Sequence record: DRR723986_16569
DNA: 38,097 nucleotides
Reading direction: 5' to 3' (one strand)
Notes under the pieces: generated by a model
What the model was told of the DNA's origin: nothing
The model's database searches: none
Seen by the model: only the letters and a program-made list of their open reading frames with translations
Made by a program: the position numbers and the translations under genes
Part shown: in pieces, positions 53-31,513 of the stretch
Layout: each line of letters starts with the position of its first letter
Numbering within the stretch: the stretch's first letter is position 1

Positions 53-730
53 CTAATTCAAATACTTCGAGCCTTCTCTTATTGAAAGATTGGATAGGGT
101 TTCATAATGCTCATTTATAAAATCCTTGATCAATTGAGGATGCTTTTTAGAATACTCACGCAGTAACCATCCAATGGCCTTGTTGATAAAAAACTCTTTT
201 GAGCCGGTTAACCTGAGAATAGTTTCGAACATATAATCAAAGTCGACCTCATCCTTTTGTTTTAGATGTAGCAGCAGGGCTGATCTTTTGAGCCAGATAT
301 TGTCAGAATTTACCCAACGATCAACCGTTTCGTTTCTTTTATCTGGAAACTTGTCAAAGTAGATTTTAACAATTTTAGGTGCTAAAAAATCTATGGTATC
401 CCACCAAGAATGACGCGTAATTAATGACTCGATAAACGTCAAATCTTGTTCTTCAATTTTCGTTTTCCCGATTTTAAACAATAACTCCTGCGCCAAATAA
501 TGGCACTCTCGTTGCGGTTGTTGCCACAACAAGTCAATCAATTCAAATAAATCACTTTTTGATTCGGCTGGTAATTCTTTGAGATATGGTTTACAAAGCT
601 CTTTTCTAATTGGAGAAGCCAAACCAAAATAGTCAAACTGCCCTCGCATGTAGTCAGACATTTGCTTTCGTTTATCTAAATCTTGATGTGATTTAAACGT
701 GCTCAGTATATCTTCAAGAACGACATTCAT
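53..730 (-). CDS. alkD: DNA alkylation repair enzyme (AlkD-family HEAT-like repeat DNA glycosylase)
   Basis: 225 aa with AlkD-type motifs YMRGQFDYFG, LWQQPQRE, SWWDTID, NIWLKRSA and EFFINKAIGWLLREYSK. Confidence 0.88.
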   Translation of the reverse strand: MNVVLEDILSTFKSHQDLDKRKQMSDYMRGQFDYFGLASPIRKELCKPYLKELPAESKSDLFELIDLLWQQPQRECHYLAQELLFKIGKTKIEEQDLTFIESLITRHSWWDTIDFLAPKIVKIYFDKFPDKRNETVDRWVNSDNIWLKRSALLLHLKQKDEVDFDYMFETILRLTGSKEFFINKAIGWLLREYSKKHPQLIKDFINEHYETLSNLSIREGSKYLN

Positions 731-736
731 GATTTG

Positions 737-1738
737 CTAGATTCTAAATGCGAATACGCACACATCATCTAGCTGCTCTAAGCCACCCTTCCAGTCTTCG
801 AAAGTTTTGAAAATGATATCCTTCTGTTCAGCTAAACTTTTATCTTGAATGGATAAAATCAAGGTTCTGAAATTGGATGATTTAAATTTCTTGCCTTTAT
901 CACCACCGAACTGATCCACATATCCATCAGAGAAAAGATAAACTGTATCCCCTTTATTAATTTTCACAGCATGACTGGTGAAGTTCGTTGCGTTGATGTG
1001 CTTACCAACAGGTTGTTTGTCAGCCTTTATTTCTTCTACTTCGTTCGAATTGTTTCTGATAATCCAAAGTGGATTGTGGGCACCTGCATAACTAAGATTT
1101 TTGCTTCCGTTCGCATCCGTTTCTTTATCAAGCGCAACGAGCGCAATATCCATTCCGTCTTTTACCTCTTCATGAGATTTTTCAAATTCTTCAATGACGA
1201 TTGCTCTTGTTTTGTCCAAGATTAATCCTGGGTCTTCTAAGTTGAATTCTTTTACAGATCTATTTAATCCGTTATTACAAATCACAGAAACCATAGCGCC
1301 TGGAACACCATGCCCCGTACAATCTGCCGCAGCAAAAATAGATTTATTATTTTTCTCTTGAAACCAATAAAAATCTCCAGATACAATGTCTTTGGGTTTA
1401 TATAAAACAAACCACTCTTCTAGGGCTTGATCAATGACTTTGCTTTGTGGGAGGATTGCCTTCTGTAATCGCTCTGCATAAACTATTGAGTCCGTAATTT
1501 CTTTATGCTTGGCTTCAATCTCTAAACGTAACTTATTGATCCGTTCTTTCTCGTCATGTATGGCTTTACTCTGTTCCCAAAGTTTAGCGTTGTTTCTTTG
1601 AATTTCTTCTTTGTCAATTTTAAGCTGTTCACGTTCAATCTCAATGGCTTTTAACTGCTCATCAAGTTCTTTTTTTTGCTTGTAGATCTGCTCATTGATC
1701 TCCCACAAACGCTTATTATTTGATTCAGAATTCTCCAT
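737..1738 (-). CDS. SpoIIE/RsbU-family PP2C Ser/Thr phosphatase with N-terminal coiled coil
   Basis: Motifs DSIVYAERLQKAILP, DIVSGDFYW, AADCTGHGVPGA, DGMDIA, FSDGYVDQFGG and LDDVCV; the first ~85 aa are charged and heptad-like with no TM segment. Confidence 0.93.
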   Translation of the reverse strand: MENSESNNKRLWEINEQIYKQKKELDEQLKAIEIEREQLKIDKEEIQRNNAKLWEQSKAIHDEKERINKLRLEIEAKHKEITDSIVYAERLQKAILPQSKVIDQALEEWFVLYKPKDIVSGDFYWFQEKNNKSIFAAADCTGHGVPGAMVSVICNNGLNRSVKEFNLEDPGLILDKTRAIVIEEFEKSHEEVKDGMDIALVALDKETDANGSKNLSYAGAHNPLWIIRNNSNEVEEIKADKQPVGKHINATNFTSHAVKINKGDTVYLFSDGYVDQFGGDKGKKFKSSNFRTLILSIQDKSLAEQKDIIFKTFEDWKGGLEQLDDVCVFAFRI

Positions 1739-3036
1739 TATTCAATATTTAAATTCCCACTGGAGTCATAATTTCCAACAAAAACCGAAAGCACATCACC
1801 TGAAATTGTTGGGTCAACAAATGAAGCAGGACTGAACCTTGGTGTATATCCTGAGCCAATATAATCACCTTCTGCATTCAATCCAACAAAATGGAATCTT
1901 GATACAGGACGTTGATTATTCACAAAGAAACTATTTGTCACTTCAAGCGAAGAATTATAGTGAATCATGGCCCCAGAAAAAATATTTTGAGTTGTCACAT
2001 AACCTGATACAATCAAATCAGTGTTATTAAATGTTCGAGCAATTGTTAAATCTTCTGTGCCAAAGCTCACAGTTCCCCCTTCTTGATCAGAAAATGTTCC
2101 TGGCACAACATGCATTGAAGTAGCTGTCCCAGTAGCGGGATTCAAAGTGTAAAAAGCAGGGCCAGAACTCGATTGAGTGGATCCTCCAACGGTTCCCGAA
2201 AAATTACCAGTAGTAAAAAGTAAAATCTCATTGTCAAAAAATCTCAGGTCTCTATGGCGGTTGAATGTTGTGTCAGTTGAACTATAATCGGCAGTAAAGG
2301 TCTGTAACCAATTTGGACTAAAATCAGCATTAACAGATCGCACAAAGAATGGAGTGCTTGATCCATCAGCTCGGAAATAGGCGATTACCAACTCGTCATT
2401 CGCAGAAACTGTTGCGTCATTTAACGTAACGGTACCTGTTCCCATTATCAAGTCAGCACTTTCAATTACATTAAAATTATCATCCGTTTTTGTCATTTTT
2501 AGCCTATTAAACAAGCCGTATTGACCAACCACGAAAAACATGTAGCCGTATGATGTTTTCACCATTTTCGTATCGTATCCGAAATCAGCAGGAACGTTAG
2601 ATACCTCAATGGTGTGTTGACCTATTATCAACCCTGACATCTGGTCAATTTCAGAAACGAAAACATAAGTAGAAGAGTTTTGTTGGGCATCTCCAACTAC
2701 CAACAACTTTTCACCAACTATCATTTCTGTTAATCGGATATTGGTATAGTCGTCTGCATTTTCTAAGAATGATTCCAAGGCATTTCTTTCTTTGAACATA
2801 AATTTACCCTCAGTGTCAAATCCAAAAATCGTTAGGTAATCATTCATGGCCAAATCTTTATTTTTATCCATAAAATATAGACCATTCTCGTTCATATCAT
2901 GATCGACTGGAGTATAAGCATCATAGGTGGTGAATGTAGAATCACCTTCGTCCATCAATAATTCTTTTTGACACGAACTCACTACCATTGAGCCTATGGT
3001 CAATATCAAAAGCAATATGAAGTTTAGCTTTTTCAT
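1738..3036 (-). CDS. Lipoprotein, beta-strand-rich (probable beta-propeller), function unknown
   Basis: Signal peptide II MKKLNFILLLILTIGSMVVSS-C followed by QKE; repeated short strands and Gly/Asp turns; its stop overlaps the next start (TAATG). Confidence 0.7.
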   Translation of the reverse strand: MKKLNFILLLILTIGSMVVSSCQKELLMDEGDSTFTTYDAYTPVDHDMNENGLYFMDKNKDLAMNDYLTIFGFDTEGKFMFKERNALESFLENADDYTNIRLTEMIVGEKLLVVGDAQQNSSTYVFVSEIDQMSGLIIGQHTIEVSNVPADFGYDTKMVKTSYGYMFFVVGQYGLFNRLKMTKTDDNFNVIESADLIMGTGTVTLNDATVSANDELVIAYFRADGSSTPFFVRSVNADFSPNWLQTFTADYSSTDTTFNRHRDLRFFDNEILLFTTGNFSGTVGGSTQSSSGPAFYTLNPATGTATSMHVVPGTFSDQEGGTVSFGTEDLTIARTFNNTDLIVSGYVTTQNIFSGAMIHYNSSLEVTNSFFVNNQRPVSRFHFVGLNAEGDYIGSGYTPRFSPASFVDPTISGDVLSVFVGNYDSSGNLNIE

Positions 3037-4115
3037 TTGATTTTGTATTTCAAATTATATCGAACTCCTGCCTGTAAGGTCATAAAATGAAGCTTATAGT
3101 CTTCGTCAAGATAATAATATTCATAGACTAATTCTTTATCTTGATAGCGTTGTGTTGGGTCTATCACATTAGAAAATCCATATTGAAAACTAGCATTCAA
3201 AAATAAAGACAATCGCCTAACCCGGTAGGAGACATCTAAGCCTCCAGCAATAAAATGGTCAAAAGGAATCCTTGTTAATGTTCTGTCCATCTCATTTTTC
3301 ACAATTGTCGTCACTCCAGTTTTTATTGGCAGCCCATCTTCAATGACCTGATTAGATTCGTAAACAGGTACCGTTAATAGTAAACTGTTTTCAAATTTCG
3401 TGAAGTAATTCATTTCGTATCCCACATATGGACTTACAATGATTTTTTTAGAAAGATTGAATTGATAATTATACTGTAATCCTAAGGACAAGGACTTAAT
3501 ATCTTCGCCAAATTCAACGAGATAATCTTCTGTATATCCAAAGAAGATTCGTTTGTGCCCCATTTGATTGAAATTACCACTCAAAACAAAGCGGTGATTC
3601 TTCCATGGCATATAACCCACTGAAAGGCCAAAAGAAGGTTTAAATTCTCCCTCATAAAAACTATTTAAATAATCTAACTCTTCATAAATAGAATAGGTTT
3701 TTATTCTCTCTACAAAAGTCATCCTAACGCCTAAGCCTACACCAATATCCCATACAGGTCTTGCAGTATGACCTTCTAGGTGCAACATAAAGTCTTCTTC
3801 TAGAATTTCGGTGCGGGGTTCGAAATATTTATTGTTGTCAAAGATTTTTTTGTACCAAGGATCTAATTCTTCCACGCGATCTAACTCAATTAAATTTCGA
3901 ACAATCATTACTAGAATGTTTTCTTTTTCAATTTTATTGAATTCGCAGGCTGACTCTGTTTCTAAACCTTCTAAAATGGCAAGACTTTGATTAAAGTTTC
4001 CTTGATCAAATAACTTTTCAGCATTTTCTAATCTACCTAGGCATCCCGACTGCGCAAAATTCATAGTTGAAACTAGTAAAACAAGGGTCAATATGGTCCA
4101 TCTTAAATGCTTCAT
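3033..4115 (-). CDS. Outer-membrane beta-barrel protein (PorT-like) with N-terminal TPR-like helical domain
   Basis: Signal peptide ending NFA-Q; helical region CLGRLENAEKLFDQGNFNQSLAIL; alternating amphipathic strands (WDIGVGLG, FGLSVGY, LSLGLQYNY, LQAGVRYNL at the C-terminus). Confidence 0.75.
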   Translation of the reverse strand: MKHLRWTILTLVLLVSTMNFAQSGCLGRLENAEKLFDQGNFNQSLAILEGLETESACEFNKIEKENILVMIVRNLIELDRVEELDPWYKKIFDNNKYFEPRTEILEEDFMLHLEGHTARPVWDIGVGLGVRMTFVERIKTYSIYEELDYLNSFYEGEFKPSFGLSVGYMPWKNHRFVLSGNFNQMGHKRIFFGYTEDYLVEFGEDIKSLSLGLQYNYQFNLSKKIIVSPYVGYEMNYFTKFENSLLLTVPVYESNQVIEDGLPIKTGVTTIVKNEMDRTLTRIPFDHFIAGGLDVSYRVRRLSLFLNASFQYGFSNVIDPTQRYQDKELVYEYYYLDEDYKLHFMTLQAGVRYNLKYKIK

Positions 4116-7100
4116 TCTTTACAGCCTTTTCTGTATTCGACCTTATTTCCTATATACTTTTCCCATTCATCTTCTGTGAATGATCGACTTAAGTTTTGGC
4201 AAATTTCTTCAATATTTTGATCGATATCGGTTGACCAAAAACGTGTATTCCCATTTTCAAGACCAGCCAATAAAAATCCTTCTTTCGAAAAAGCCAAGGT
4301 TCTAATTTGCGAATCAATGTTTTCAATAATCATGGGGTCATTATCTAATTTGCTTAAGTTAAACAAACCTATCCTCTTATCGGCCGAAGCGACAGCCAGG
4401 GTCAATTGATCTTCACTGATTTCGATTAAGGCAATCGGAACATATCCAAACTGTAAGGTCTTTTTTATCTCAAGATTATCATTCAGCACAATTACCGCAC
4501 CTTGATTATTACTTAGTATTACTTTTTTATTTTGGAACAAACAAGCGCGTAAACTTCCTGTGATTTCAATTTCTTTTATCAGTTCTCCTGAAGTTAAATC
4601 AATTAAACCGCATTTATTACGAGTGATATATGCAATTTTATTGTCGTTTACGGCAATATCCACAACTGTTTCGTTGAGATTATAAGTAACGACCTCATTT
4701 TCTTTGCTAATTGACTGTATAACCAACAGACCATCTTGACTTGCAGAAATCAACTTATCACCTGATTTTCTAACCTGTTTAATTAAAGCCTGGTGATTTT
4801 TAAATTCATAATCTGGCTGATTAGTACTGAATGAATTATAATAAGCCATCCCGCCATTTAAATCAACAAAGGCCATGCTCGAATTATCTAAGAAAAAAGC
4901 ATCTGCGGCAGGACCCTCAAAATTTGTTTGAAGCTGCATTATACCTGCATGATTCAATCCTTGAAAAAATCCATTCCTAAAATCCCAAATATCTACAAAT
5001 CCTTCATTATTTATGGCGAATATTTTATGATCCTTTTCTTGGATAAGAATGTCATTGGCCATAAAACTCGATTCGTTCAGTAAATTATAATCAGGGCCTT
5101 TAAGTTTAGAAAGGGCAGCCGTACTACCGCTAAAAATTGAAGGATCTTTAGGATTTCCATTCACTTCATTATTAAAATCGGAAGCATGGTAAGCCATTAA
5201 CCCTGATAATTCTGGTTCGATTTCGAATCGAGAGGCTTGCAGGGCTAAACTGGTTGATACCGCTTGCATTGACAATTCATACGCTTGATTTCGTGCAATG
5301 TTTGCACTGTCTCTCTGTGTTTCAGTGAGGTTTTTTTGCTCCAACAACTGATCTATTGCTTGCAAAGTCTTGTTGGCCTCTTCTTTAGCTAATTTAGCTT
5401 GCTGTAATGCAAATTGCTTAGAAGATTCAGCTAAGGCTTTTTGCTGCAAGGCCTCCGTTTTGGCTTGATTTGCCAATTTTTCGTTTTCTTCAGACACTCT
5501 TAAACTACTGTCTGACAATGCGGATAAATACAACGCTTTTTCCTCCGATTTAATGGCCTCCTGAGTGGCCAACTCAGCATTCTTTTTTTGAAGTTCTGCG
5601 ACTACTTTTGCATCATCAGCCAAAGATTTTTCTCTAAAAGCCCAAATAGTAATTGATGTTAACACCAGCACAGCTATAGATGCTGCAATAAGCACAGCCA
5701 AACGTCTTCTTCTTTTAGCAACTCGTGCTGCGTTAATAGCCGACCTACTTTCTGCAATAAACGCTTTTATCTGCTCAAGCATTTCAGCAATTTCAGCTCT
5801 GAAATTTGTGTCACTGGCCGCGTGTTGCTCATACTTCATGATCCAAAATACACTTGGGTCTGTACGCTCAAACCATTTCTCAAAATAATCTAGTGGACCT
5901 ATACCCAGTAAATAGTGTTTTGACTTATCATTTTCTACCCATTTATCTGATTGTGCTCTTAAATCTTGAAAGGTTTGATAATCCTGTGTGTCATGAACCG
6001 CCCAGCTTTTTAAAGGTACCCAGTTTCTAATTAACGACTCGTGAGAGATTTCTATTGGATCATTTTCAGCTAAAGTGGCTATTTGGTTTGAGTAAGGCGC
6101 TAGCAAATCGTTACCCTCTTTTCTAAACAAGAACACCAGCTCATTTGCCTGAGCCAATGACATTGGGTACTTTAGATTGCTCACCAGTTCTCCGAAAACA
6201 CATTTGTAACGTACTCCTTTACCGTTATCCATCTTCGCCATACTTTTCATTAAGAAGACCAAATTCTCTTTGATTTGTTCCTCTTCAGCTTCTGGATATT
6301 TTTTTAGATAATTTTTGACAGATAATTCAAATAAATCGGAGGCATGAGCATTGATTACATTATTCAATGTTTTTTCAGATTGTTGATCAGAAATACCTGC
6401 TAACTCAGGAATACTCTGCTGCTCTTTAGGTAAATCTGTTACCTTGAGACCTTGGCAAATTGCAAGATGATATAAATCCAAATCTTTTCCGCCTGCCGTT
6501 CGCCAAATGCGGTTCATACAATGTTGGATGATCGGTAATTGATCGGACCCTTCTGTTGTTGAATTAATGAGGTGATCAACTAGTCTATTTTGGATGGCAT
6601 CACCATTCAAATCTGCCGGGTCACGAATCACATCAGCAATTTCTTCACGATTCAAACGCGGAATAAAATACTGACTGTACCCAATTAATTCTGGAATCCC
6701 TCTTAAAGATGCGCAATTTCCGATATAATCAGAACGCATGGTGAATACCACATAAATCGGTAAATCAAGTTCTTTTGCCAACCTGATGGTATTGCTTAAT
6801 AAGTTGGCCACTAAGTGGGATGAATCATTAGGATTCCCATTCACCAAATTTTCACTGTTCGTAAAAAATTCCTCAAATTGATCGACAATCAGTAATAAAT
6901 TTGCGCCTGATCTTTTCTTTTCAACCCGTTCTTCTGCAGAGAGACCTTGAAATTCATTATCATTCTCTTCAAAATATAGGGGTGATTCTTTATATAATTT
7001 TACCAAAGATGAAAAGCCGTAAGAAAGCTCCTTACGCACATAATCTAAGTCCATCCGAAGTGATTCGGCAACACGTTTACACATGTTTTCGAATGGTGAT

Positions 7101-7351
7101 TTTTCGGGTCTGAAATCACATACTTTCCAATTATTGAAGCGTGATTTAAAAAACCCTGCTTTTGCTTTCGGCACCAAGCCGGCATATACAATTGAAGATT
7201 TTCCGTCTCCAGAAGCGCCAGTAATCATCACAAAGCGTTTCTCTTCTAATGATTTAATGATTTGAAAAACATGATCCTCTCGACCTCTGAAAAATATAGC
7301 CTCCTCTTCAGCAAAAGGTCTTAAGCCTGGATATGGAGACTTTCTAATCAT
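4112..7351 (-). CDS. nSTAND1-family STAND NTPase with single TM helix, coiled coil and C-terminal WD40 repeats
   Basis: SPYPGLRPF..EAIFFRGRE, Walker A GASGDGKSS, Walker B LLIVDQFEEFF, TMRSDY, LPIIQH, EISHESLIRNW; TM RRRR-LAVLIAASIAVLVLTSITIWAF; A/E/Q/K-rich coil; WD repeats (HQALIKQV..LISASQDG, LAVASADKRIGLF, LAGLENGNTRFW); C-terminal C..SRSFTEDEWEKY..C motif. Confidence 0.92.
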   Translation of the reverse strand: MIRKSPYPGLRPFAEEEAIFFRGREDHVFQIIKSLEEKRFVMITGASGDGKSSIVYAGLVPKAKAGFFKSRFNNWKVCDFRPEKSPFENMCKRVAESLRMDLDYVRKELSYGFSSLVKLYKESPLYFEENDNEFQGLSAEERVEKKRSGANLLLIVDQFEEFFTNSENLVNGNPNDSSHLVANLLSNTIRLAKELDLPIYVVFTMRSDYIGNCASLRGIPELIGYSQYFIPRLNREEIADVIRDPADLNGDAIQNRLVDHLINSTTEGSDQLPIIQHCMNRIWRTAGGKDLDLYHLAICQGLKVTDLPKEQQSIPELAGISDQQSEKTLNNVINAHASDLFELSVKNYLKKYPEAEEEQIKENLVFLMKSMAKMDNGKGVRYKCVFGELVSNLKYPMSLAQANELVFLFRKEGNDLLAPYSNQIATLAENDPIEISHESLIRNWVPLKSWAVHDTQDYQTFQDLRAQSDKWVENDKSKHYLLGIGPLDYFEKWFERTDPSVFWIMKYEQHAASDTNFRAEIAEMLEQIKAFIAESRSAINAARVAKRRRRLAVLIAASIAVLVLTSITIWAFREKSLADDAKVVAELQKKNAELATQEAIKSEEKALYLSALSDSSLRVSEENEKLANQAKTEALQQKALAESSKQFALQQAKLAKEEANKTLQAIDQLLEQKNLTETQRDSANIARNQAYELSMQAVSTSLALQASRFEIEPELSGLMAYHASDFNNEVNGNPKDPSIFSGSTAALSKLKGPDYNLLNESSFMANDILIQEKDHKIFAINNEGFVDIWDFRNGFFQGLNHAGIMQLQTNFEGPAADAFFLDNSSMAFVDLNGGMAYYNSFSTNQPDYEFKNHQALIKQVRKSGDKLISASQDGLLVIQSISKENEVVTYNLNETVVDIAVNDNKIAYITRNKCGLIDLTSGELIKEIEITGSLRACLFQNKKVILSNNQGAVIVLNDNLEIKKTLQFGYVPIALIEISEDQLTLAVASADKRIGLFNLSKLDNDPMIIENIDSQIRTLAFSKEGFLLAGLENGNTRFWSTDIDQNIEEICQNLSRSFTEDEWEKYIGNKVEYRKGCKE

Positions 7352-8142
7352 GCTTGGGTGAGCGAATCGTATTGGATTTTAATTTCAAGTGCTAGTAAAT
7401 CTTTACCCGCCTCTGCAATTGTCACATTCGGAATAGAGACTGTACTTTTTTCGTTGGTGTCAGATCCTATTAAAAGGATTGGAACTCCAGAAGAGACCCC
7501 TCCAATTTTTTTCCAAATTTCTTGGGTAAACAATTCAGACCATTCTTTTTGCTGATCATAAACTACCACGCACAAATTTGCCTCTAAGGCTAGTTTAGAA
7601 AGACTATCTATCGTTGATGATTCATCCGAAATATCAACAGGGATTTTATTGACTTTAAAAATATCGCTTAACATGCCCGTTACATCTTCACCTACTTGAT
7701 TATCCAAAACACTGTAGAACACTGACATGTGTGTGCCATTATTTTTAATGTTTTCGTCTGTTCGAGTTTCAAGTGTCTTGATGACATCCTCTACAAAACG
7801 AATGACAAAAGATTCTCTGCTATAGCTAATATTTCTAGATAGATGCGAGCTGATCAAACTTTCAAATCCCTCTGCATTTTCTTTTGCTTTGGGGTTCCAA
7901 ATAAAACCATTTAACAAGGTACCTTCATCCAGGCCTTTGGTCATTTGATTCAGTTGGTCTTCATAAAAATTTCGATCTCCGAGTTCTGATATAATCAGCA
8001 CCGATTGGTCATTCGAAATGGCATTATTGTCATTTGTGAATTCGGCGTTTATTATCCCAGCGCGTTCAAAAACCTTTTGAAGCACATTGACGGATTCTTG
8101 ATCCGTACTGTGGATCGATATCTGATTATAATTATTATCCAT
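7348..8142 (-). CDS. Hypothetical cytoplasmic alpha/beta protein, possibly two degenerate TIR/DUF4062-like (flavodoxin-fold) domains; STAND partner
   Basis: ATG at 8142 (the ORF track uses TTG at 8148); alternating strand/helix pattern in two halves (GFIWNP; CVVVYDQQKEW..EIWKKIGG); ATGA overlap with the STAND gene. The fold call is inference. Confidence 0.5.
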   Translation of the reverse strand: MDNNYNQISIHSTDQESVNVLQKVFERAGIINAEFTNDNNAISNDQSVLIISELGDRNFYEDQLNQMTKGLDEGTLLNGFIWNPKAKENAEGFESLISSHLSRNISYSRESFVIRFVEDVIKTLETRTDENIKNNGTHMSVFYSVLDNQVGEDVTGMLSDIFKVNKIPVDISDESSTIDSLSKLALEANLCVVVYDQQKEWSELFTQEIWKKIGGVSSGVPILLIGSDTNEKSTVSIPNVTIAEAGKDLLALEIKIQYDSLTQA

Positions 8143-8159
8143 GGGCAATTGGACTTTGG

Positions 8160-8167
8160 CAAAGTTA
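8160..8167 (-). promoter_or_regulatory. Bacteroidota sigma-A -7 promoter box upstream of the STAND operon
   Basis: Minus strand reads TAACTTTG(C), matching TAnnTTTG, 17 nt upstream of the ATG at 8142. Confidence 0.6.
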
Positions 8168-8215
8168 GCATTTTAATCATAATGTCAACTAAGCTTTTAG
8201 TAGGTGCCTAAACCG

Positions 8216-8914
8216 TTAAAAATCTAAATAATTTAGTTGTATTTTTTTATTTTTCTTATTGGCTGTTTTTACTACAATAACATCTTTTAAGTCATTCCAA
8301 TCTTCATCTGACATATTCAATAAATAAACATTAGCAGCCTCTTCAGTTTCATCATATTCAAAATGGCTGAAATTGGCAACAGACTGCAGATATTCTTCCA
8401 GTTTTTTCTCAACTAGAACGGGCTCAACCTCTGCAATGTAGCTGTCTACTTCTTCAATTGTGTGAAGGTTCGCTATGGATTCTCTGTCATTTAATTTTCG
8501 TTTCAAATTTTTAGATTCAAGCAAAAGATCAAGCAAATCATGGAAGAATTTAGATCCCAAACTCAAGAAAAAACCTGTTAATAGGCAACCAAAAATATCG
8601 TAAAGTGCGTGTAACCATGAGTTGTCCTGGCTAAAATCAAACGATTGCCAACCGAGTTCGAAAGCTGGGTTATAAATCTGAAAAATACTTGCACGAGTCA
8701 ATAAAGCCACAACAATACCAGCAATAATTGCCATGGTCTGAATTTCTCGAGATCGTTGCTGCTCAGCATTTTCAGTAGCACTTTTTTTGGATACGAACAA
8801 TAGTGCAATTGACTTCACCCAGCTGGTTGGTCTTAGTTTAACCAGGTTCGTAATTTTCTCTGTAATCATGCTCAGAATGAGCAGAACAAAAACTATTTGT
8901 ATAAAGGCATCCAT
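8216..8914 (-). CDS. Three-TM membrane protein of unknown function with soluble acidic C-terminal domain
   Basis: Hydrophobic helices at the N-terminus, MAIIAGIVVALL and IFGCLLTGFFLSLGSKFFHDLL; its start overlaps the upstream stop (TAATG at 8914). Confidence 0.7.
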   Translation of the reverse strand: MDAFIQIVFVLLILSMITEKITNLVKLRPTSWVKSIALLFVSKKSATENAEQQRSREIQTMAIIAGIVVALLTRASIFQIYNPAFELGWQSFDFSQDNSWLHALYDIFGCLLTGFFLSLGSKFFHDLLDLLLESKNLKRKLNDRESIANLHTIEEVDSYIAEVEPVLVEKKLEEYLQSVANFSHFEYDETEEAANVYLLNMSDEDWNDLKDVIVVKTANKKNKKIQLNYLDF

Positions 8915-10082: not shown

Positions 10083-11123
10083 TTACGGAAACTCGTAAAA
10101 ATAGCGCCTTGCTCGTTTCACAGTTGGCTCTACCATATTGTATTCTACATCTAGTGGTTCTTTACCTCGTTCAAAAAACCAATACCCATTTCTAGGTTCG
10201 AATTGTTGCATTGATGAAAAATCAAAAGTGTCCGATTTAAAATATGCTTTGTAATTCGTTTGACTAAAATCGGCGTATCCTGACTCTACTCCATCATCTT
10301 TCAGTTGCTCACCAATCATATCTGAGAAGTAAGAAAAATCATCTGAAATTTCACCCGTTTCGGTGTAGGCTAAAAAATAACGCTTTGGAATTTTAGTTTC
10401 ATCCTCGTATATCTTTTTCAACCAAAATCCATCTTCTGGATCATGCATCAAAGCAAAAGAAAAATCAGGTTCTCTATTAAATTCCATTATTTCTTTACCA
10501 TCTGCATTTAAACCCATTTGCCAAGTTGAAAAGGTATAGATGATTTCGTTTGCTTGTTCACTATAATATCCAAAGAAAGCTCCAAATTCTTTGACCTGTT
10601 TCGCTTCCTCAGGAGTTAGGTCACTGTAAAAATCTACGGCTTTGGGAGTTGGATAGTTTGTAAATGAAGACCAATTTTCTTCTTCCCCATTCCATACAAA
10701 CATGGCAATATTTTGCGCTCCCTTACTTGATTGAATAAGCACTGCATAAGGTAATGCACTTTCTGGATTAATAATTGCAAATTCTGTTGTCGTATAACAC
10801 TCATCATTGCTAAACTCCAAATAATTAGCCTCCACTTTCTTACTGATCCAAACGTATTCATCCACGCCATCTCCCATCAACAGATTCTTGACCTGTTTTT
10901 CATTGTAGCAAAAATCCTCAGTGATTTGTTCAGGCTTTAAGGCATAAAAACTCTGAATGATTTCGGGTTGTTCTTCTAATTTATAGACAATCGAATCATC
11001 ATTCTCAGTTGCAGCCGTTAAATCTTCTTCTCCACCTGATGACGTAATATATCCTCCGTCATCTTCAGGAGCTGAACCGCAAGAAAACAAGGCAAGAGAA
11101 GCGAAAAATAAAACCTTTCTCAT
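10083..11123 (-). CDS. Acidic lipoprotein, function unknown
   Basis: Lipobox LALFS-C and acidic linker; start overlaps the kbl stop (TAATG). Confidence 0.7.
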   Translation of the reverse strand: MRKVLFFASLALFSCGSAPEDDGGYITSSGGEEDLTAATENDDSIVYKLEEQPEIIQSFYALKPEQITEDFCYNEKQVKNLLMGDGVDEYVWISKKVEANYLEFSNDECYTTTEFAIINPESALPYAVLIQSSKGAQNIAMFVWNGEEENWSSFTNYPTPKAVDFYSDLTPEEAKQVKEFGAFFGYYSEQANEIIYTFSTWQMGLNADGKEIMEFNREPDFSFALMHDPEDGFWLKKIYEDETKIPKRYFLAYTETGEISDDFSYFSDMIGEQLKDDGVESGYADFSQTNYKAYFKSDTFDFSSMQQFEPRNGYWFFERGKEPLDVEYNMVEPTVKRARRYFYEFP

Positions 11124-13321: not shown

Positions 13322-14236
13322 ATGAAAACACTCTCATTAATACTTACTCTGTTAGCTGGAACTGCTGCTATTGCCCAAGAAATTGAAAAGGACAAAGATG
13401 GATTCGTATCTATTCCTGAAATATCCGAAAAAATTGTCATCAAGGGTAAATCAATTAAAATAGATGAAGCCCATTTTAAATACCTGCCTGAATACAGTTA
13501 CAAAGATGGAATTGTATATGGATCGTGGATAAAATTCTATTTAGATGGGATTGAAGACGTGAATAGTTTTGAAGGAAAGTCTCTGATTTTGACCAAAGAA
13601 AGAGTGTATCGTAAATCAGACGAGAAAGTGATGTACTCGGTAGACTGGTCATTTGGTGATGATGGTGCAGAAGATGCTGTTGAGTTAGATGAAGATGAAC
13701 ATTTGGTTTTCACGGCTAAACTAGAAATTGGCACCCCTATGTGGTCTGATGATTACGTCTGGGAGATTACCATTGCGAATTTTTGTAACGGCGATAAGGT
13801 GACGCTTTCTGTGCCTTTCAAAATTATTCCGAATCCAGCTATTAAAACCAAAACATCTGGTGGAGCAGGCGTCAAAGAAGTTTGCTTATTCAATAAAGAC
13901 AAAAAATATTTATACGCAGGAACAGAAATTAATCAGGGGAATTTAAGTGTACCGTTTTATGACATTTCGGGCTTCAAACAACAAGATGGATTGTATAAAG
14001 TGGGAGTATCTGTTCAATTCTTGAACTCAAAAGGCGAAATTATAACCGAAAATGAAGACCTTGCTACCGGTAGTGATGCCTTTATTGAACCTGCAGAAGA
14101 TGGGACGCTAGAGCTATTTCCATTTATAGATATTAAATCAGATGTGGCTCAGCAATTTGTCACCTACAAAATCACGATTTGGGATAAAATCGGAAAAGGG
14201 GTTGTAGAAACTGAAATTAAAGTATTCGTTAAATAG
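13322..14236 (+). CDS. Secreted hypothetical protein with two related beta-sandwich-like halves
   Basis: Signal peptide ending AIA-Q; the halves end in YVWEITIANF..KVTLSVPFKI and VTYKITIWDK..VETEIKVFV. Confidence 0.65.
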   Translation: MKTLSLILTLLAGTAAIAQEIEKDKDGFVSIPEISEKIVIKGKSIKIDEAHFKYLPEYSYKDGIVYGSWIKFYLDGIEDVNSFEGKSLILTKERVYRKSDEKVMYSVDWSFGDDGAEDAVELDEDEHLVFTAKLEIGTPMWSDDYVWEITIANFCNGDKVTLSVPFKIIPNPAIKTKTSGGAGVKEVCLFNKDKKYLYAGTEINQGNLSVPFYDISGFKQQDGLYKVGVSVQFLNSKGEIITENEDLATGSDAFIEPAEDGTLELFPFIDIKSDVAQQFVTYKITIWDKIGKGVVETEIKVFVK

Positions 14237-15699: not shown

Positions 15700-18600
15700 A
15701 TGAAAAAATTAAATTTAATACTATTGTTGCTGATTGGTTTTGGCAGCTTTGCGCAGTGTCCTGTTGGAGATGTAACCTTGAACACTCAGGCTGATGTCGA
15801 CAATTTTCAAGTAAATTATCCTAATTGTTCTGTAATTGATGGTGATTTTACAGTTAGTGGATTAGACATCACTGATTTAACACCACTGATAAACATTACG
15901 CAGGTAACTGGAACATTACAATTAAACACCTGTGGGTTCGCTTCTTTGAATGGTTTACAAAATCTAACTTCTGTCGGATCAGCAGGTGGTCAGGAAATGC
16001 TTATGATTTATAACAATCAAAATCTACAGGACATGAGCCAGTTGTACAATCTTAACACTGTAATTGGTGACCTTTGGGTTTATAATAATGACAACGTAGT
16101 TACTCTTTACGGATTGCAAGGATTAAATGCGATAAACGGCAATCTGTTTATTGTTCAAAATGATGGCCTCGTCAATTTCTTTGGTTTGCACGCTTTAGTC
16201 AGTGTTGGTAGTATCGGAATTAGTCAAAATACCGTTTTGCAAGACATTTCTCAAATTTCTAGCCTTAATTCAGTTAATACAATATTAATTGAAAACAATG
16301 CGCAATTAAACAGCCTTAGTGGTTTACAAGGATTAACCAATATGTCTGGAAATTTGAAAATAGAAGGTAATAATATCAACAGTTGCTCAGGCTTAAATAA
16401 TTTGGTATCAATAGGATCATTCTCAATCAAAAATGAACAATCACTCACCAGTTTATCAGGTTTACAGAGTTTAACAACAGTGAATGGATTAACCGTTGAA
16501 TTTTGCCCTCAACTGCAATCGTTTGATGCACTTGAAAACTTGAATTCAGTTGGAAATTTAAATATAAAGGCGAATTTTATGTTAAACGACTTATCCGCTT
16601 TAAATCATCCAATTGCTTTAAACAGTTTAACTGTAACAAATAATAATAATTTACAACAATGTGCAGTTCAAGCGATATGTGATTATTTGGATGTAAACAC
16701 TGCAACTATTCAGAGCAATAATTTTGGTTGTAATTCAGAAACCGAAGTTGAAAATCAATGCGCAACATTAACCCAACTTTTACCTATTCATTGCGGTGAA
16801 CAATTAACAACGTTTGATCAAGTTTTTCATGCTGAGGCAGTGACAGGTGCTACTGAATATGAATTTCAAATTTGGAACATTCTTGACCCTCAAAATCAAC
16901 AAGTAAGTGGTTCTGTTTCTCCGAGTCATAGCCTTGAACAATTTGGTTTATTTGAATTGGGTCAGACCTATGAGATTAGGGTCAAGGCTAAAATAAATGG
17001 AATATGGTATGGATACGGTCCTATTTGTCAACTTTATTCACCTGTTACAGTTCCTGAAACTCAAATTACCGCATCAAATTGTAACCAACAACTTATCACA
17101 TTTGATGAATTGTTTTATGCAACAGAAGTATCAGGAGCGACTCAATATGAATTTGAATTTACAAATACGCAATCCGGTCAGGTAACATTAAGTAATTCAA
17201 CGGACAATAGTCATTCTCTTCAAGCAGCTGGCTTAACTAACTTTAATCAAATTTATAATGTTAGAGTTAGAGCTTATATTGACGGTACTTGGGGTGCTTA
17301 CGGAACGAGTTGCGCAATACATGCTCCGATTTCTCCATGTCCTATTGGTGACGTCATACTCTTAAATCAAAACCAAGTAGACCAATTTATAATTGATTAT
17401 CCTACTTGTACTGAAATTGACGGTAACCTTTTTGTAACTGGCTCATTAAACGATTTGAGTCCACTATCAAACCTTGTCACAATCCATGGCGATTTTTCAC
17501 TATCTACTTACAGCAGCGCATTAAGCACATTAACTGGAATACATAATATTGCTACAGTTGACGGAGAACTCTCTCTTTATATCAACGGAACAACTAATAT
17601 CACTGATTTAACTGAATTAACTGCACTTGCAACTATTAACTCATTGAAAATTGGAGGTTCTAGCCTTACCTCAATGACAGGCTTAGAAAATCTTACCAGT
17701 TTAAATGGTGGGTTGACTATTAATGACGCGGATAATTTAACCAATTTAACAGGACTTCAGAATATTAATTCTATAGGTGGGGATGTATACTTAAACGATA
17801 ACCTTTTACTACAAGACCTCACGCTACTTTCTACGATTAGCAATTGGAACTTGAATCAATTAACCATTAGTCAAAATAACGCTTTAATTGATCTGAATGG
17901 ATTCCAGAATGTTACAAGTGTGGAAAAATTGGTCGTTTCTTTAAATGATAATTTGATAACTCTAAATGGTCTCAATTCTTTGACCAATATTGGTGCCAAC
18001 CCTTATTATTCATTAGAGGTTTCTCACAATCAGGACCTTCAAAGTATTGCCGCCCTATCAAATGTGACATCAATAGGCGGCGGAATTTCAATGACTTGGA
18101 ACCAAAATCTTATTTCTTATGACGGCATGCAAGGCATTACAAACGTGCCATATTCAATGAATCTAAGTTTCAATGGGGTTTCAGATCTTACCGGCTTTAA
18201 TAATCTAGCTTCTACACCAAGATTAACAATTGACAATAACCCAAACCTAACAAGTCTAAACGGACTTGAAAATCTGACTACGGTATCTGGTGACTTTTTT
18301 CGGTTTGCTTATAATCCTAATTTAACAGATATACAGGCCTTGAATCATCCAATTGTAATTCCTGCCCTCCTCCAAATTTATTTCAACTCTAGCTTATCTA
18401 CTTGCAATGCTCAAGCTGTATGTGATTATGTAGATGCTTTTTCTGCTGATATTCATCACAATGATGGAGGCTGTGACTCACAAGCTGAAGTTCAAGCTTC
18501 GTGTGCTGTGCCACTTACACAATTAAAACCAGCACACTGCGGAGAACAACTAACAACTTTCAATGAGGTGTTCTATGCTGATGCAGTGCCAGGCGCAACA

Positions 18601-20268
18601 GAATATCAATTTAAATTTGTCGATACAGATCCACCTTATGACGTTGTAGAAAATTATTGGACTTCAACTGGTCATCACTTGATCTTAGTTGACTTATTAG
18701 AGATAGGAAAGACTTATGACGTTCAAGTTAGAGCAAAATTAAATGGAGTTTGGGGTTTATACGGTGATGTTTGTCAGATACACTCACCACTTACAGTTCC
18801 AACAACGCAATTAAAAACAATAAATTGCGGTGAGCAATTGACTACTTTTAATGAGGTTTTCTATGCACAAACTGTCTCAGGAGCCACTCAATACGAATTT
18901 TTGTTTCTTGATGTAGACAACATCATCTCACCAACTTCTAGCCTTTGGACAAGCACCGGACATCATTTACAAATTCCAGGATTAATGGAATTCAATAAAA
19001 CTTATGATGTTCTTGTCCGAGCTTATGTTGATACTACTTGGGGGGATTGGGGGGATACTTGCCAAATTCACTCACCAGTCTCAGTGCCTGAGACTCAATT
19101 AAAACCAGGACACTGCGGAGAACAATTGACCACTTTTAATGAAGTATTTTATGCTGAGTCTGTACCTGGCGCGACGGAGTATATGTTCGAGTTTACGAAT
19201 ATTTTAACTCCAAATAATCCAATTGAAAATCTTTGGACTTCAAATGGCCATCATCTAACTTTAGTAAATCTATTAGAATTAGATGAAACATACGAAGTAA
19301 GGGTAAAAGCAAAAATCAACGGGGTCTGGGGTGATTACGGCCCAATGTGCTTGATTCATTCACCAACCACAGTACCACTTACTCAATTACAACCGACAAA
19401 TTGTGGTGAACAATTGACCACTTTTAATGAAGTATTCTATGCGCAATCAGTCACTGGCGCTACTCAATACGAATTTTTGTTTATTGATGTAGATAATATT
19501 ATTCCTCCAACTCAAAGCCCGTGGACCAGTACGGGGCATAATCTACAAATTCCAGGATTATTAGAGTTGAACAAAACTTATGATGTTCTAGTTCGTGCTT
19601 ATGTTGATAGTACTTGGGGAGATTGGGGAGATACTTGCCAAATTCATTCGCCGTTAACAGTCCCTAACACCAACATTTATGCATCTGATTGTGGAACTAC
19701 CATGTCCAGTTACAATGAAGTATTTAAATGTGACGCAGTTGCCGGAGCAGACCTCTATCGTTTTAGATTTTTTGATGGAACAAATTATACAACGAATGAC
19801 AGAACAGTAAACACCATTACTTTAAACATTGCAGGCCTTCTAGTTCAAAACGTTTCTTATCAAGTTGATGTTATGGCTAGAATCAATGGTGTTTGGGGAG
19901 CATATGATCAAGCTTGTCCAATCACTGCTCCTCCTACTCCACCAATGAATCTGCCTGGTCAGGATGACAATACAACAGGTCAATTGATTGAAGGGTCTAC
20001 ATTCATTGCAGGAATAGATGATGAAAAGACACCAAGCTTTGCTGTATATCCAAACCCAGCAATTGAAGTGTTTAGTTTGAGGACAGATTTAGATAACTAC
20101 AACATTAAACTTTATTCGACAAATGGACAATTGGTGTACAGTGATTCTCAACTGAGTGGAACGCAGCAAATAGAAGTTTCACAATTTGATGCAGGACTTT
20201 ATATCCTTCAAATTTCAGATTCAGAAAATGTTTTACTAGAAACTACCAAGATTACAGTAATGAAATAA
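15700..20268 (+). CDS. Large T9SS-secreted protein with two receptor-L-domain/LRR solenoids and seven Cys-bracketed ~96-aa FN3-like repeats
   Basis: Signal peptide SFA-Q; LxxLxGLxxLxxV repeats capped by CPxGDV..Q.xVD.F...YP.C; CGEQLTTF..GATxYxF..YxVxVRA..WG.YG..C repeats; C-terminal YPNPA..G.YIL sorting domain. Confidence 0.9.
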   Translation: MKKLNLILLLLIGFGSFAQCPVGDVTLNTQADVDNFQVNYPNCSVIDGDFTVSGLDITDLTPLINITQVTGTLQLNTCGFASLNGLQNLTSVGSAGGQEMLMIYNNQNLQDMSQLYNLNTVIGDLWVYNNDNVVTLYGLQGLNAINGNLFIVQNDGLVNFFGLHALVSVGSIGISQNTVLQDISQISSLNSVNTILIENNAQLNSLSGLQGLTNMSGNLKIEGNNINSCSGLNNLVSIGSFSIKNEQSLTSLSGLQSLTTVNGLTVEFCPQLQSFDALENLNSVGNLNIKANFMLNDLSALNHPIALNSLTVTNNNNLQQCAVQAICDYLDVNTATIQSNNFGCNSETEVENQCATLTQLLPIHCGEQLTTFDQVFHAEAVTGATEYEFQIWNILDPQNQQVSGSVSPSHSLEQFGLFELGQTYEIRVKAKINGIWYGYGPICQLYSPVTVPETQITASNCNQQLITFDELFYATEVSGATQYEFEFTNTQSGQVTLSNSTDNSHSLQAAGLTNFNQIYNVRVRAYIDGTWGAYGTSCAIHAPISPCPIGDVILLNQNQVDQFIIDYPTCTEIDGNLFVTGSLNDLSPLSNLVTIHGDFSLSTYSSALSTLTGIHNIATVDGELSLYINGTTNITDLTELTALATINSLKIGGSSLTSMTGLENLTSLNGGLTINDADNLTNLTGLQNINSIGGDVYLNDNLLLQDLTLLSTISNWNLNQLTISQNNALIDLNGFQNVTSVEKLVVSLNDNLITLNGLNSLTNIGANPYYSLEVSHNQDLQSIAALSNVTSIGGGISMTWNQNLISYDGMQGITNVPYSMNLSFNGVSDLTGFNNLASTPRLTIDNNPNLTSLNGLENLTTVSGDFFRFAYNPNLTDIQALNHPIVIPALLQIYFNSSLSTCNAQAVCDYVDAFSADIHHNDGGCDSQAEVQASCAVPLTQLKPAHCGEQLTTFNEVFYADAVPGATEYQFKFVDTDPPYDVVENYWTSTGHHLILVDLLEIGKTYDVQVRAKLNGVWGLYGDVCQIHSPLTVPTTQLKTINCGEQLTTFNEVFYAQTVSGATQYEFLFLDVDNIISPTSSLWTSTGHHLQIPGLMEFNKTYDVLVRAYVDTTWGDWGDTCQIHSPVSVPETQLKPGHCGEQLTTFNEVFYAESVPGATEYMFEFTNILTPNNPIENLWTSNGHHLTLVNLLELDETYEVRVKAKINGVWGDYGPMCLIHSPTTVPLTQLQPTNCGEQLTTFNEVFYAQSVTGATQYEFLFIDVDNIIPPTQSPWTSTGHNLQIPGLLELNKTYDVLVRAYVDSTWGDWGDTCQIHSPLTVPNTNIYASDCGTTMSSYNEVFKCDAVAGADLYRFRFFDGTNYTTNDRTVNTITLNIAGLLVQNVSYQVDVMARINGVWGAYDQACPITAPPTPPMNLPGQDDNTTGQLIEGSTFIAGIDDEKTPSFAVYPNPAIEVFSLRTDLDNYNIKLYSTNGQLVYSDSQLSGTQQIEVSQFDAGLYILQISDSENVLLETTKITVMK
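18517..19668 (+). repeat. Intragenic tandem duplication with 576-nt period (two 288-nt subunits)
   Basis: CACTGCGGAGAACAA occurs at 18535 and 19111; GATACTTGCCAAATTCA also recurs at a 576-nt offset. Confidence 0.85.
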
Positions 20269-30235: not shown

Positions 30236-31513
30236 TCAATTGTTAAGCCTATTGCCGGAAATGTCAATTTCAAAGGTGTCTTTTGCAACGTTGACTTTAC
30301 AAACACCATCTTTAAAAATTCCTACGTCATCAAATTGTGCCGGAATTGCTACTTCTAAAGAACTATCAATAAATCCACATTTTCCATTTTTCTTAAAAGC
30401 AGATAGTCCCTCTGAAAATTGTGGGATGGCATATTTAACTGAAGTCCCAGACGCTTTACCTATTCCAAAAAACCCATTATGACTCCAATCATATGTGCTA
30501 CTAAACAATGGATAAGTATCGCTTACCTTCACTAAATCGTTATTTTCCACCCTAAAGTAAGCGTACTTTTTTCCTGACTGTTCAATAGCAATTAATTGAG
30601 TTCCCGTACAAAGTTCAAACTCTTTCGTAAAATCGGCCAGCACCACTTTTCCTGATGGTAAAATAATGTCAAAGTAGTTTTTGTTTTTGACCATTTTTTC
30701 ACCTACAAAAACATTTTGATTTATAAAAAACTCTACATCTCTATATCCTAAAGGTATCAATTCTTTACCTGTCGAGTCAATGATACCTTTGTTGTTCCAT
30801 CCGACTTTATTAGCGGCCCAAACTTCAAAATAATTCTCGCTGTCATCTACATTTTTTAAATATCCGTACCAGTCAGAAATAATCACTCCTTTCCAATTCA
30901 TGGCAGCGCTTAATTCGTCAATTCCGTCATTCTTATGGACTTCATAAAAATGTCTTTTTTTGTAAGTTACAATATCATTGTACCATGCTGAAATAATTTT
31001 ACCCTGGTCGCTGATTAACGATTTACGCTCACCATTGAAACCACATGTATCACAGGATTCGCTGATTATAAACGTACCATTCTTTTTTGCTTTTTCAATC
31101 TTACTATAAGGACCAAAAACAGTCTTTCCCAAGGTATCCAGTAGATACCAAATGAGGTTACCATTTTCATCATTTGACCGACCATAAATAATTGGATAAT
31201 CTTGAGTCTCGATAAAATCATAACCTTCAGAAACGATTTCCCCCTGCGAATTGATTAAATAATCTAAGCCGCTATTTCTATCCAGAGTCACTTTTGCCAA
31301 ATTTGACTGAAAAGCTAGAGCACTGTAAAACATAAAATCAATCATCACATTTCCATCTTGATCTACATAACCTTGTTTACCTTCTTCATTTGATTCAACC
31401 GTCCAGGTTTTAGGATCTGAATCTTTTTTACCTTCATTATTATTAGAAGTACAGTTTAATTGACTGAAAGCAATTAAAATTAACAGCAACCAATTGTTTT
31501 TATTTCTTTTCAT
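30236..31513 (-). CDS. WG-repeat (KWG) lipoprotein
   Basis: Probable lipobox SQLN-C; GYVDQDGNVMIDF..AFQSNLAKV and FSEGLSAFKKNGKCGFID..QFDDVGIFKDG repeats. Confidence 0.8.
   Translation of the reverse strand: MKRNKNNWLLLILIAFSQLNCTSNNNEGKKDSDPKTWTVESNEEGKQGYVDQDGNVMIDFMFYSALAFQSNLAKVTLDRNSGLDYLINSQGEIVSEGYDFIETQDYPIIYGRSNDENGNLIWYLLDTLGKTVFGPYSKIEKAKKNGTFIISESCDTCGFNGERKSLISDQGKIISAWYNDIVTYKKRHFYEVHKNDGIDELSAAMNWKGVIISDWYGYLKNVDDSENYFEVWAANKVGWNNKGIIDSTGKELIPLGYRDVEFFINQNVFVGEKMVKNKNYFDIILPSGKVVLADFTKEFELCTGTQLIAIEQSGKKYAYFRVENNDLVKVSDTYPLFSSTYDWSHNGFFGIGKASGTSVKYAIPQFSEGLSAFKKNGKCGFIDSSLEVAIPAQFDDVGIFKDGVCKVNVAKDTFEIDISGNRLNN

Follow-up and report, generated by a model that had tools for sequence, protein, structure and literature searches.

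STAND NTPases are switches in which the binding of a ligand to a repeat domain leads to oligomerization and then to activation of an effector, and STAND/NLR receptors, whether from bacteria, plants or animals, are regarded as sensing inside the cytoplasm. Rcs (RcsF lipoprotein, outer-membrane protein and IgaA), the SusC/D-anti-sigma systems of Bacteroidota and the hybrid two-component sensors with propellers in the periplasm share a logic in which a lipoprotein and a barrel of the outer membrane act on an inner-membrane protein that senses in the periplasm and has its output in the cytoplasm. The nSTAND1 forms known from counter-invader systems are, in the accessible part of the source, soluble and equipped with modules of the death-like, EAD, TIR and caspase kinds and others like them (Kaur, Iyer, Burroughs, Aravind 2021, PMC8195603). 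As far as the available text of two preprints goes, DUF4062 is a TIR-like NADase with a catalytic glutamate that acts as an effector in Avs and other defence systems, stands at the N terminus of Avs proteins in that capacity and also occurs in human TEP1 and NWD1 (bioRxiv 2026.09.04.749371, 2026.05.01.722283), where the order is DUF4062-NACHT-WD40 (bioRxiv 2026.05.01.722283). Here we describe a five-gene cassette on the minus strand of a 38,097-nucleotide stretch of DNA (sequence record DRR723986_16569; the whole stretch is called the window), in which a TIR-like partner and an nSTAND1-WD40 protein with a predicted membrane helix are followed by an outer-membrane beta-barrel protein, a lipoprotein and a PP2C phosphatase. 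Literature searches, and the accessible part of PMC7159879, yielded no account of a STAND that is split by a membrane and accompanied by barrel, lipoprotein and PP2C; the supplementary tables of Kaur et al. 2020/2021 may list such neighbourhoods.

We propose that the cassette is a mobile unit encoding an NLR-like STAND switch across the inner membrane, and put the probability of this reading, together with the relay set out below, at roughly 55%. Support is good for the module and for its layout across the envelope; which way the signal runs, what the ligand is, which parts touch and whether the role lies in immunity or environmental sensing are inferred. The composition and compartments assigned in a first-pass annotation of the same DNA were borne out by the charge bias around the STAND membrane helix, the model of the barrel, and the signal peptide and cysteine of the proteins in the fourth position, all of which are detailed below. 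The features on which the argument draws are as follows (aa, amino acids).

731-8215, minus strand: the whole cassette, present in the window and missing between the abutting flank genes of same-genus genomes
8160-8167, minus strand: TAACTTTG, a match to a Bacteroidota -7-box-like consensus, 11-17 nt upstream of the first start codons
7348-8148, minus strand: gene 1, the partner, 266 aa, with two flavodoxin/TIR-like alpha/beta domains, the N-domain degenerate and the C-domain conserved
4112-7351, minus strand: gene 2, 1079 aa, nSTAND1 NTPase, helical domain, membrane helix, coiled coil and WD40 propeller, matching PF20703
5642-5710, minus strand: predicted membrane helix of the STAND, about residues 548-570, with a hydropathy peak of 2.63 at 551-569 and KRRRR before it
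4115-5629, minus strand: predicted periplasmic part of the STAND, with an Ala/Lys/Glu-rich coiled coil (about 575-700), the WD40 propeller (about 701-1079) and a C-terminal Cys pair
3033-4115, minus strand: gene 3, 360 aa, in which a signal peptide precedes a helical, TPR-like domain (25-94) that has a Cys pair, and a beta-barrel (118-359)
1738-3036, minus strand: gene 4, 432-aa lipoprotein with signal peptide and Cys22, of no family, with leads to propellers
737-1738, minus strand: gene 5, 333-aa PP2C with an N-terminal coiled coil and a SpoIIE/SiaA-like catalytic domain, without a membrane anchor

The five gene coordinates are those of the open reading frames (ORFs) in the window's ORF list; for gene 1 the ATG at 8142 is a likelier start than the listed TTG at 8148. 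Reading of the sequence confirmed the earlier claim that stop/start overlaps join the genes, three of them through ATGA (7351-7348, 4115-4112 and 3036-3033) and one through TAATG (1740-1736).

The evidence for a sensor divided from its ATPase comes from gene 2. Residues 6-295 match nSTAND1 PF20703 (E = 1e-63; 216.7 bits versus a cut-off of 27.1), an alignment of 21 sequences (gene 2 and 20 homologues) shows no variation in the columns of Walker A (G45-S53) and Walker B (D157-E161), and the NTPase looks active on these residues. WD40-type propeller families of Pfam match residues 842-1050, and the profile of the STAND family matches the WD40 structures 2ymu (E = 5.9e-61) and Apaf-1 WD40 (E = 1e-40). 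The C-terminal repeat sensor and the effector or adaptor module that characterize STANDs are both present, the latter encoded upstream in the window and fused in one relative described below. For comparison across relatives, 37 STANDs of 1050-1145 aa were designated type A and 66 of 1300 aa or more type B; a membrane helix within residues 550-600 occurs in 37/38 type-A and 64/66 type-B STANDs. Lysine plus arginine (K+R) counts in type A are 5.95 in the 15 residues before the helix and 2.76 in the 15 after it, with the larger value before the helix in 37/37. Because the ATPase is necessarily cytoplasmic, this N-side excess places the coiled coil and the propeller in the periplasm; it is thus strongly predicted that the nSTAND1 ATPase and helical domain are cytoplasmic, and that one helix crosses the membrane and continues into a coiled coil of ~125 residues holding the WD40 domain in the periplasm. 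A Cys pair lies within the last 45 residues of 17/38 type-A STANDs.

Homologues of this protein number at least 2910, most of them full-length, from Bacteroidota, at ~33% identity and ~1090 aa. Their annotations (hypothetical, 'WD40 repeat protein', 'EcfA2' or 'RodZ') are generic or wrong, and since the sources hold only such names the family is effectively unannotated.

To evaluate gene neighbourhoods, a scan of GTDB species genomes was used that returned 556 confirmed STAND matches, of which the best 80, forming 79 loci, were kept; L001-L006 were left out as copies or fragments of the window locus or of two relatives. The barrel gene is directly downstream of the type-A STAND in 23/31 evaluable cases and in the same-strand run in 25/31, the PP2C gene lies in the downstream same-strand run in 21/26, and the partner gene is directly upstream in 17/32 and anywhere in the run in 23/32, the cases lacking a partner being mostly second, tandem modules. 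Barrel, lipoprotein slot and PP2C thus accompany STAND homologues in this sample; their absence beside such homologues was among the outcomes that the first-pass annotation had named as refuting its proposal. Type-B STANDs show another pattern, with a barrel in 0/63, a PP2C in 3/43, a partner in the run in 56/62 and a 267-aa multi-pass membrane protein in 59/63. These type-B loci (L034, L048 and ~35 more; for example L048:7846-18885) form a system of their own, consisting of a partner with TIR_2 and DUF4062, in some cases also a cyclase, two tandem 1350-aa membrane STANDs, the 267-aa multi-pass protein and often a TPR-S protein.

The same association was seen among 301 evenly drawn Bacteroidota genomes, in each of which two candidates were scored. 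The STAND profile was matched in 12/301 at E <= 1e-30; the partner profile was matched in five, the four strongest partner matches (G151, G240, G001 and G255) lying beside STAND matches. Barrel matches with E < 1e-15 directly adjoin STAND matches in G001, G291, G255 and G118; those of G151 are on other contigs. Four closer relatives from metagenomes keep the gene order; identity to the window is 63% for the STAND, 54% for the barrel, 42% for the lipoprotein and 69% for a likewise 333-aa PP2C in one of them (L118), and 69% for the partner, 71% for the STAND and 55% for the barrel in another (L117).

Conservation differs markedly between the parts. Median identities of the window products to 19 full type-A loci, with E < 1e-3 taken as a match, are listed with the number of loci matched.

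STAND cytoplasmic part: 42%, 19/19 loci
PP2C coiled coil: 47%, 19/19 loci
PP2C catalytic domain: 38%, 19/19 loci
Partner C-domain: 34%, 16/19 loci
WD40 propeller: 24%, 19/19 loci
Barrel TPR domain: 27%, 11/19 loci
Barrel strands: 23%, 8/19 loci
Lipoprotein: no match, 0/19 loci

By this measure the predicted cytoplasmic parts are conserved and the predicted envelope parts diverge.

The partner encoded by gene 1 has no Pfam match at E <= 0.01 and no NCBIfam or PADLOC match. Its AlphaFold2 (AF2) model, built from 30 homologues with a predicted local distance difference test score (pLDDT) of 80.6, contains two flavodoxin-like domains (4-135 and 137-266), each a three-layer alpha/beta structure with VIA Z values of 11-12.7 to REC, TIR and B12-binding folds alike, which do not discriminate among them; Foldseek searches with the whole model gave only two-domain Rossmann-like matches of low template-modelling (TM) score. 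The profile of the partner family, which lies upstream of STANDs in 62 loci, matches the bacterial TIR structure 7uxr at E = 1.3e-3 and, among DUF4062 proteins, KpSwz at E = 0.014, and long homologues carry TIR_2 and DUF4062 domains, some also a nucleotide cyclase domain; the one at L034 scores above the DUF4062 cut-off (28.9 versus 24.7 bits). In HMMER alignments the column of the second Glu of the 7uxr helix, which we take to be the TIR catalytic glutamate, holds Gln in nearly all partners, and the column of the KpSwz Glu holds Glu in ~10/31 and Lys or Arg in ~10. In the sub-lineage to which the window belongs, deletions occur in the N-domain and there is no conservation at either column; the window partner therefore lacks a conserved TIR/DUF4062 catalytic glutamate as judged from these alignment columns, in which the identity of the catalytic residue is in part our presumption. 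Because the N-domain has no conserved catalytic Glu, NADase activity or killing by this partner appears unlikely, and the conserved C-domain is a better candidate for docking. The label 'TIR-like' is supported in part: the fold, equally close to REC and B12-binding domains, and the weak profile matches agree with it, but the N-domain of the window partner is degenerate and has no conserved catalytic Glu. In a 1452-aa protein (P0121; two member sequences, one contig) the partner (E = 6e-43) is fused to the STAND (E = 6e-136), followed by membrane helix, coiled coil and WD40, which suggests that the partner takes the place of the N-terminal effector or adaptor domain of classical STANDs; this is a single cluster and may be a gene-calling artefact.

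We are confident from the model that gene 3 encodes a small outer-membrane beta-barrel with a signal peptide. Its OMP_b-brl match is weak (E = 1e-3; 19.7 bits versus a cut-off of 28.7), and the AF2 model from 25 homologues (pLDDT 88.7; predicted TM score 0.75) has a signal helix, four TPR-like helices and a barrel that Foldseek matched to OmpA, Ail, OmpT/Pla, NspA and OmpX with E-values down to 1.5e-8 and with a probability of 1.00 for OmpA, Ail and OmpT. Among the 26 members of the barrel family (E <= 0.01), OMP_b-brl was matched in 5/26, OMP_b-brl_2 in 4/26 and TPR-type families in 3-5/26, and most of the TPR domains carry Cys pairs or triplets.

Gene 4, by contrast with no Pfam or NCBIfam match, probably encodes a beta-propeller, as its ESM Atlas leads are propeller clusters. 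Cys22 follows a hydrophobic stretch in the manner of a lipobox. In 24 cases the product of the gene after the barrel is 380-450 aa long and has a signal peptide as well as a Cys that is invariant in all 24, at pairwise identities of only 11-17%; 11/24 are PKD plus Kelch propellers. A phmmer search of gene 4 against 25 position-4 proteins matched only its own near-identical copy, and the same slot of L118 holds a homologue 42% identical to gene 4. The gap between lipoprotein and PP2C is itself variable: six relatives (L012, L016, L017, L019, L023 and L027) carry 1-5 tandem ~300-aa genes there, whose products are PCMD-like and have a C-terminal domain for sorting by type IX secretion (T9SS); a GldN-like 178-aa ORF on the opposite strand parts tandem modules.

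Gene 5 encodes, as far as its residues indicate, an active-looking RsbU/SiaA-type PP2C phosphatase. The SpoIIE family PF07228 is matched at E = 4.5e-19 (69.6 bits versus a cut-off of 25), and residues 59-332 align to SiaA (6k4e; E = 7.9e-38) with the acidic metal-site motifs aligned. The NCBIfam model SiaA (NF038263) is matched in its phosphatase part (E = 1.3e-59), at model positions 392-657 only; with 202.4 bits versus a cut-off of 700, gene 5 was rejected as a SiaA equivalog. The other four cassette proteins drew no NCBIfam match. Related PP2Cs have an N-terminal membrane anchor in 24/30, with K+R of 0.08 before and 5.08 after it, an asymmetry that puts their catalytic domain in the cytoplasm. 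The description 'sensor-less phosphatase' is accordingly true of the window PP2C and does not extend to these 24. In G001, the nearest genome, SpoIIE is matched 42 times, for the most part in multidomain ORFs of 500-1700 aa, and STAS only three times; a very large number of PP2C inputs appears to converge on few partner-switch proteins in this organism.

The limits of the cassette emerged from same-genus genomes. In G007 the sequences matching window 59-730 and 8216-8605 (L085 124-795 and 800-1189) are separated by ~4 nt, in G004 and G003 the alkylation-repair gene, the 232-aa gene and a YdjC-like gene adjoin one another likewise, and in total the flank genes abut in 3/5 same-genus genomes. 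This adjacency without the cassette indicates that 731-8215 is a discrete 7.5-kb insertion/deletion unit with its own upstream spacer. By the same comparison, a sixth same-strand gene at 53-730 (DNA_alkylation; E = 1.9e-63), although it starts 6 nt past the PP2C stop, is assigned to the flanking locus, outside the cassette. The relatives L119 and L120 have different upstream genes, and no direct or inverted repeats were found at the cassette ends; a self-contained, horizontally mobile cassette is part of what we regard as the best explanation. Within the 67-bp spacer upstream of gene 1, TAACTTTG at 8167-8160 is the TAnnTTTG box behind which the first-pass annotation had placed the five genes. 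The match is where it was said to be, but the window contains 37 copies of TANNTTTG and shuffled versions of it 51 +/- 6, so that the count is not above chance; three more same-strand copies lie inside the gene cluster. We regard TAACTTTG as a well-placed consensus match that is statistically unsupported as a promoter and is not evidence by itself; scans for sigma-70 promoters (29 sites versus 31.6 expected) and terminators (6 versus 5.5 expected) were likewise at chance level.

In the mechanism that we propose, the periplasmic propeller would read the state of the barrel-lipoprotein pair, or a ligand captured by that pair; the cue may be phage or envelope attack, or it may be an environmental ligand. 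The signal would pass through the membrane helix and cause the ATPase to oligomerize; the oligomer would gather the TIR-like partner and switch the PP2C, which would dephosphorylate a target in the cytoplasm; the most plausible candidate is a partner-switching protein of STAS type whose gene lies outside the cassette, elsewhere in the genome.

Several observations weigh against this reading, beginning with its proposed output. The window PP2C lacks the anchor of most linked PP2Cs, as do those of L018 and L027, and it is 63% identical to paralogues of its own genome, as represented by the nearest genome (G001), versus 38-47% to STAND-linked PP2Cs elsewhere. In a quick tree, with branch support from the Shimodaira-Hasegawa-like approximate likelihood ratio test (SH-aLRT) only, gene 5 falls in a 9-row set with eight G001 paralogues (support 92), 26/28 linked PP2Cs form one 27-row set (support 87) beyond a branch of support 95, and two linked rows with one other form a distant third group. 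The grouping with paralogues indicates that gene 5 is not an orthologue of the usual STAND-linked PP2C. One reading of this is that the PP2C slot was refilled by a local paralogue, which would argue for, rather than against, a need for a PP2C in the slot; the anchor-less 333-aa form is kept in the sub-lineage of the window, at the 69% identity given above for L118.

The envelope side and the sampling count against it as well. The lipoprotein slot is occupied by unrelated lipoproteins, so that a single conserved lipoprotein contact is unlikely. Of the earlier claim of a lipoprotein at the outer-membrane surface, the signal peptide and Cys of the position-4 proteins remain and the surface does not generally: the Bacteroidota export signal, given as C-X-K-(D/E)2 in the accessible part of its source (PMC5080379), is present in its strict form in only 2/25 position-4 lipoproteins, which rules it out as a general feature, and the window protein reads C-Q-K-E-L, outside the strict form. 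The 79 loci are score-selected and mutually related, so the fractions describe the sample and the events are not independent, and the ORFs in relatives were called by a simple ORF rule and then clustered, a further limitation.

Several of the gene junctions are bridged in an RNA library. Two metatranscriptome libraries hold contigs near-identical to the window, and X3 contigs at 335-1411, 1374-1918, 2887-3154 and 5659-8326 bridge gene 5 and the flank, genes 4 and 5, genes 3 and 4, and genes 1 and 2, respectively. Weighing on the other side, none of the RNA-library contigs bridges genes 2 and 3, where an X3 piece at 3949-4100 ends 12 nt short, and the contig 5659-8326, which starts within the STAND gene and crosses gene 1 and the promoter-like spacer, extends over the last 110 nt of the upstream gene at its 3' end and could represent read-through or DNA carry-over. 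Contigs of RNA libraries may in general come from carried-over DNA, and strand, ends and a single transcript are not readable from them. Some parts of the cassette have no RNA-library contigs (for example 4299-5526), which is no sign of silence.

The alternative that survives best is an abortive-infection-type anti-phage or conflict system, with the envelope parts as a guarded surface receptor and, upon attack, oligomerization of the STAND and arrest or killing of the cell by the TIR-like partner, with or without the PP2C; we consider it unlikely. The STAND is found in 1/8 genomes of the genus, 3/41 relatives and the 12/301 genomes across the phylum, and this patchiness, the discrete insertion, the tandem paralogous modules and the hypervariable outer parts would all suit such a system. 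A related pair is also plasmid-borne: on a 132-kb Hymenobacter tibetensis plasmid (L121, NZ_CP094670.1:737-6651) a 530-aa partner-like gene overlaps the gene of a 1440-aa STAND, 41% identical over the cytoplasmic part, and RefSeq annotates both genes as hypothetical. Against killing, neither Glu position is conserved in the window's sub-lineage, and across the family Gln stands at the 7uxr position in most partners and the KpSwz Glu is kept in only ~10/31; we know of no PP2C that acts as a killing effector. No PADLOC-DB 2.0.0 (2023) model matches any of the five proteins (E <= 0.01), the flanks are housekeeping genes with no defence island, and the phage collection yielded only two weak partial STAND matches. 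Also in favour of the conflict reading, the accessible part of PMC8195603 defines nSTAND1 in counter-invader systems, that of the two preprints (bioRxiv 2026.09.04.749371, 2026.05.01.722283) gives DUF4062 as the TIR-like NADase effector of Avs and other defence, and the long partner forms combine TIR_2, DUF4062 and a nucleotide cyclase domain.

Signals might also run in the opposite direction, in a machine whose ATPase assembly positions or gates the barrel-lipoprotein pair through the stalk, in the manner of Tol-Pal or of a secretion accessory. The cassette resembles Tol-Pal, with its inner-membrane helical stalk, periplasmic propeller, TPR domain and outer-membrane lipoprotein, and the T9SS-sorted genes inserted between lipoprotein and PP2C in relatives, with a GldN-like ORF nearby, would fit a secretion role. 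The window cassette has no T9SS cargo gene, however, STAND NTPases are switches rather than motors, no transporter, motor or secretin component was detected among the cassette proteins by family scans, and the most conserved partners are cytoplasmic signalling-type proteins; such a machine is improbable in our judgement. A reading in which a STAND-partner pair just happens to have envelope genes and a PP2C as neighbours, with no shared function, is very hard to sustain: STAND-partner pairs without barrel, lipoprotein or PP2C do exist, type B having no barrel and few PP2Cs, and the window PP2C is of a different lineage than in most cassettes, but the same order with start/stop overlaps recurs in distant lineages, gain or loss affects all five genes at once, the sampled genomes have their strong barrel homologues next to STANDs, and a PP2C takes the last slot even where its lineage differs.

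The proposed trans-envelope STAND relay admits a bolder version, a 'guard', which would be the first NLR/STAND whose propeller senses outside the cytoplasm, watching a fast-evolving barrel-lipoprotein pair and answering through a PP2C without killing; we offer it as a speculation that we think rather doubtful. If it is true, a surface attack such as phage adsorption, contact-dependent toxins or an envelope breach would be reported before anything enters, and the output would run by way of a TIR-like adaptor without catalytic activity and of a PP2C, the latter resetting a stress network based on partner switching. With a sensor predicted to be split from its ATPase by a membrane helix, and with outer-membrane proteins and a phosphatase of its own travelling along, this family of at least 2910 proteins from Bacteroidota would carry the NLR principle over to sensing across the envelope. 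The compact mobile five-gene unit could serve as a model for STAND triggering across a membrane, for the role of a non-catalytic TIR-like module and for one of ~40 PP2C inputs feeding a partner-switching network.

Elsewhere in the window, two genes have T9SS-sorted products: that of 15700-20268 (plus strand) is 1522 aa long and contains Receptor L and LRR-like domains, and that of 24691-26415 (plus strand) is 574 aa long and contains an Ig-like CHU_C domain. A 425-aa protein of WG-containing beta repeats (30236-31513, minus strand) is encoded beside NDH-2 and glycosyltransferase genes. Three ORFs have no Pfam match: 8216-8914 (minus strand; 232 aa), 10083-11123 (minus strand; 346 aa) and 13322-14236 (plus strand; 304 aa), the first of which is conserved beside the alkylation-repair gene in same-genus genomes.

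Set against known systems, the cassette combines familiar parts in a different arrangement. As proposed here, it shares the coupling logic of the trans-envelope sensing systems; Pfam and NCBIfam scans of its proteins revealed no homology to components of Rcs, the SusC/D-anti-sigma systems or the hybrid sensors, and its transducer is a STAND ATPase rather than a kinase, IgaA or an anti-sigma factor. SiaABCD of Pseudomonas aeruginosa, RsbU and SpoIIE share with gene 5 the catalytic domain and the coiled-coil linker before it, and STAS proteins are encoded in G001; the cassette, unlike SiaABCD, has no kinase, STAS or diguanylate cyclase gene, and its input would come from the STAND in trans. Its NTPase belongs to the same family, PF20703, as that of the nSTAND1 counter-invader systems (PMC8195603). 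The type-B relatives have the same partner C-domain, the same NTPase and the membrane helix at the same position, whereas their C-terminal domain is helical and not WD40. With the classical STAND/NLR proteins (Apaf-1, Avs and TEP1/NWD1) the cassette shares the order of a TIR-like or DUF4062-like module, a STAND NTPase and WD40; in contrast to them, its propeller is predicted to be extracytoplasmic and parted from the NTPase by a membrane helix and a coiled coil, its effector-like module is a separate gene without the conserved catalytic Glu, and it brings dedicated outer-membrane genes and a PP2C of its own.

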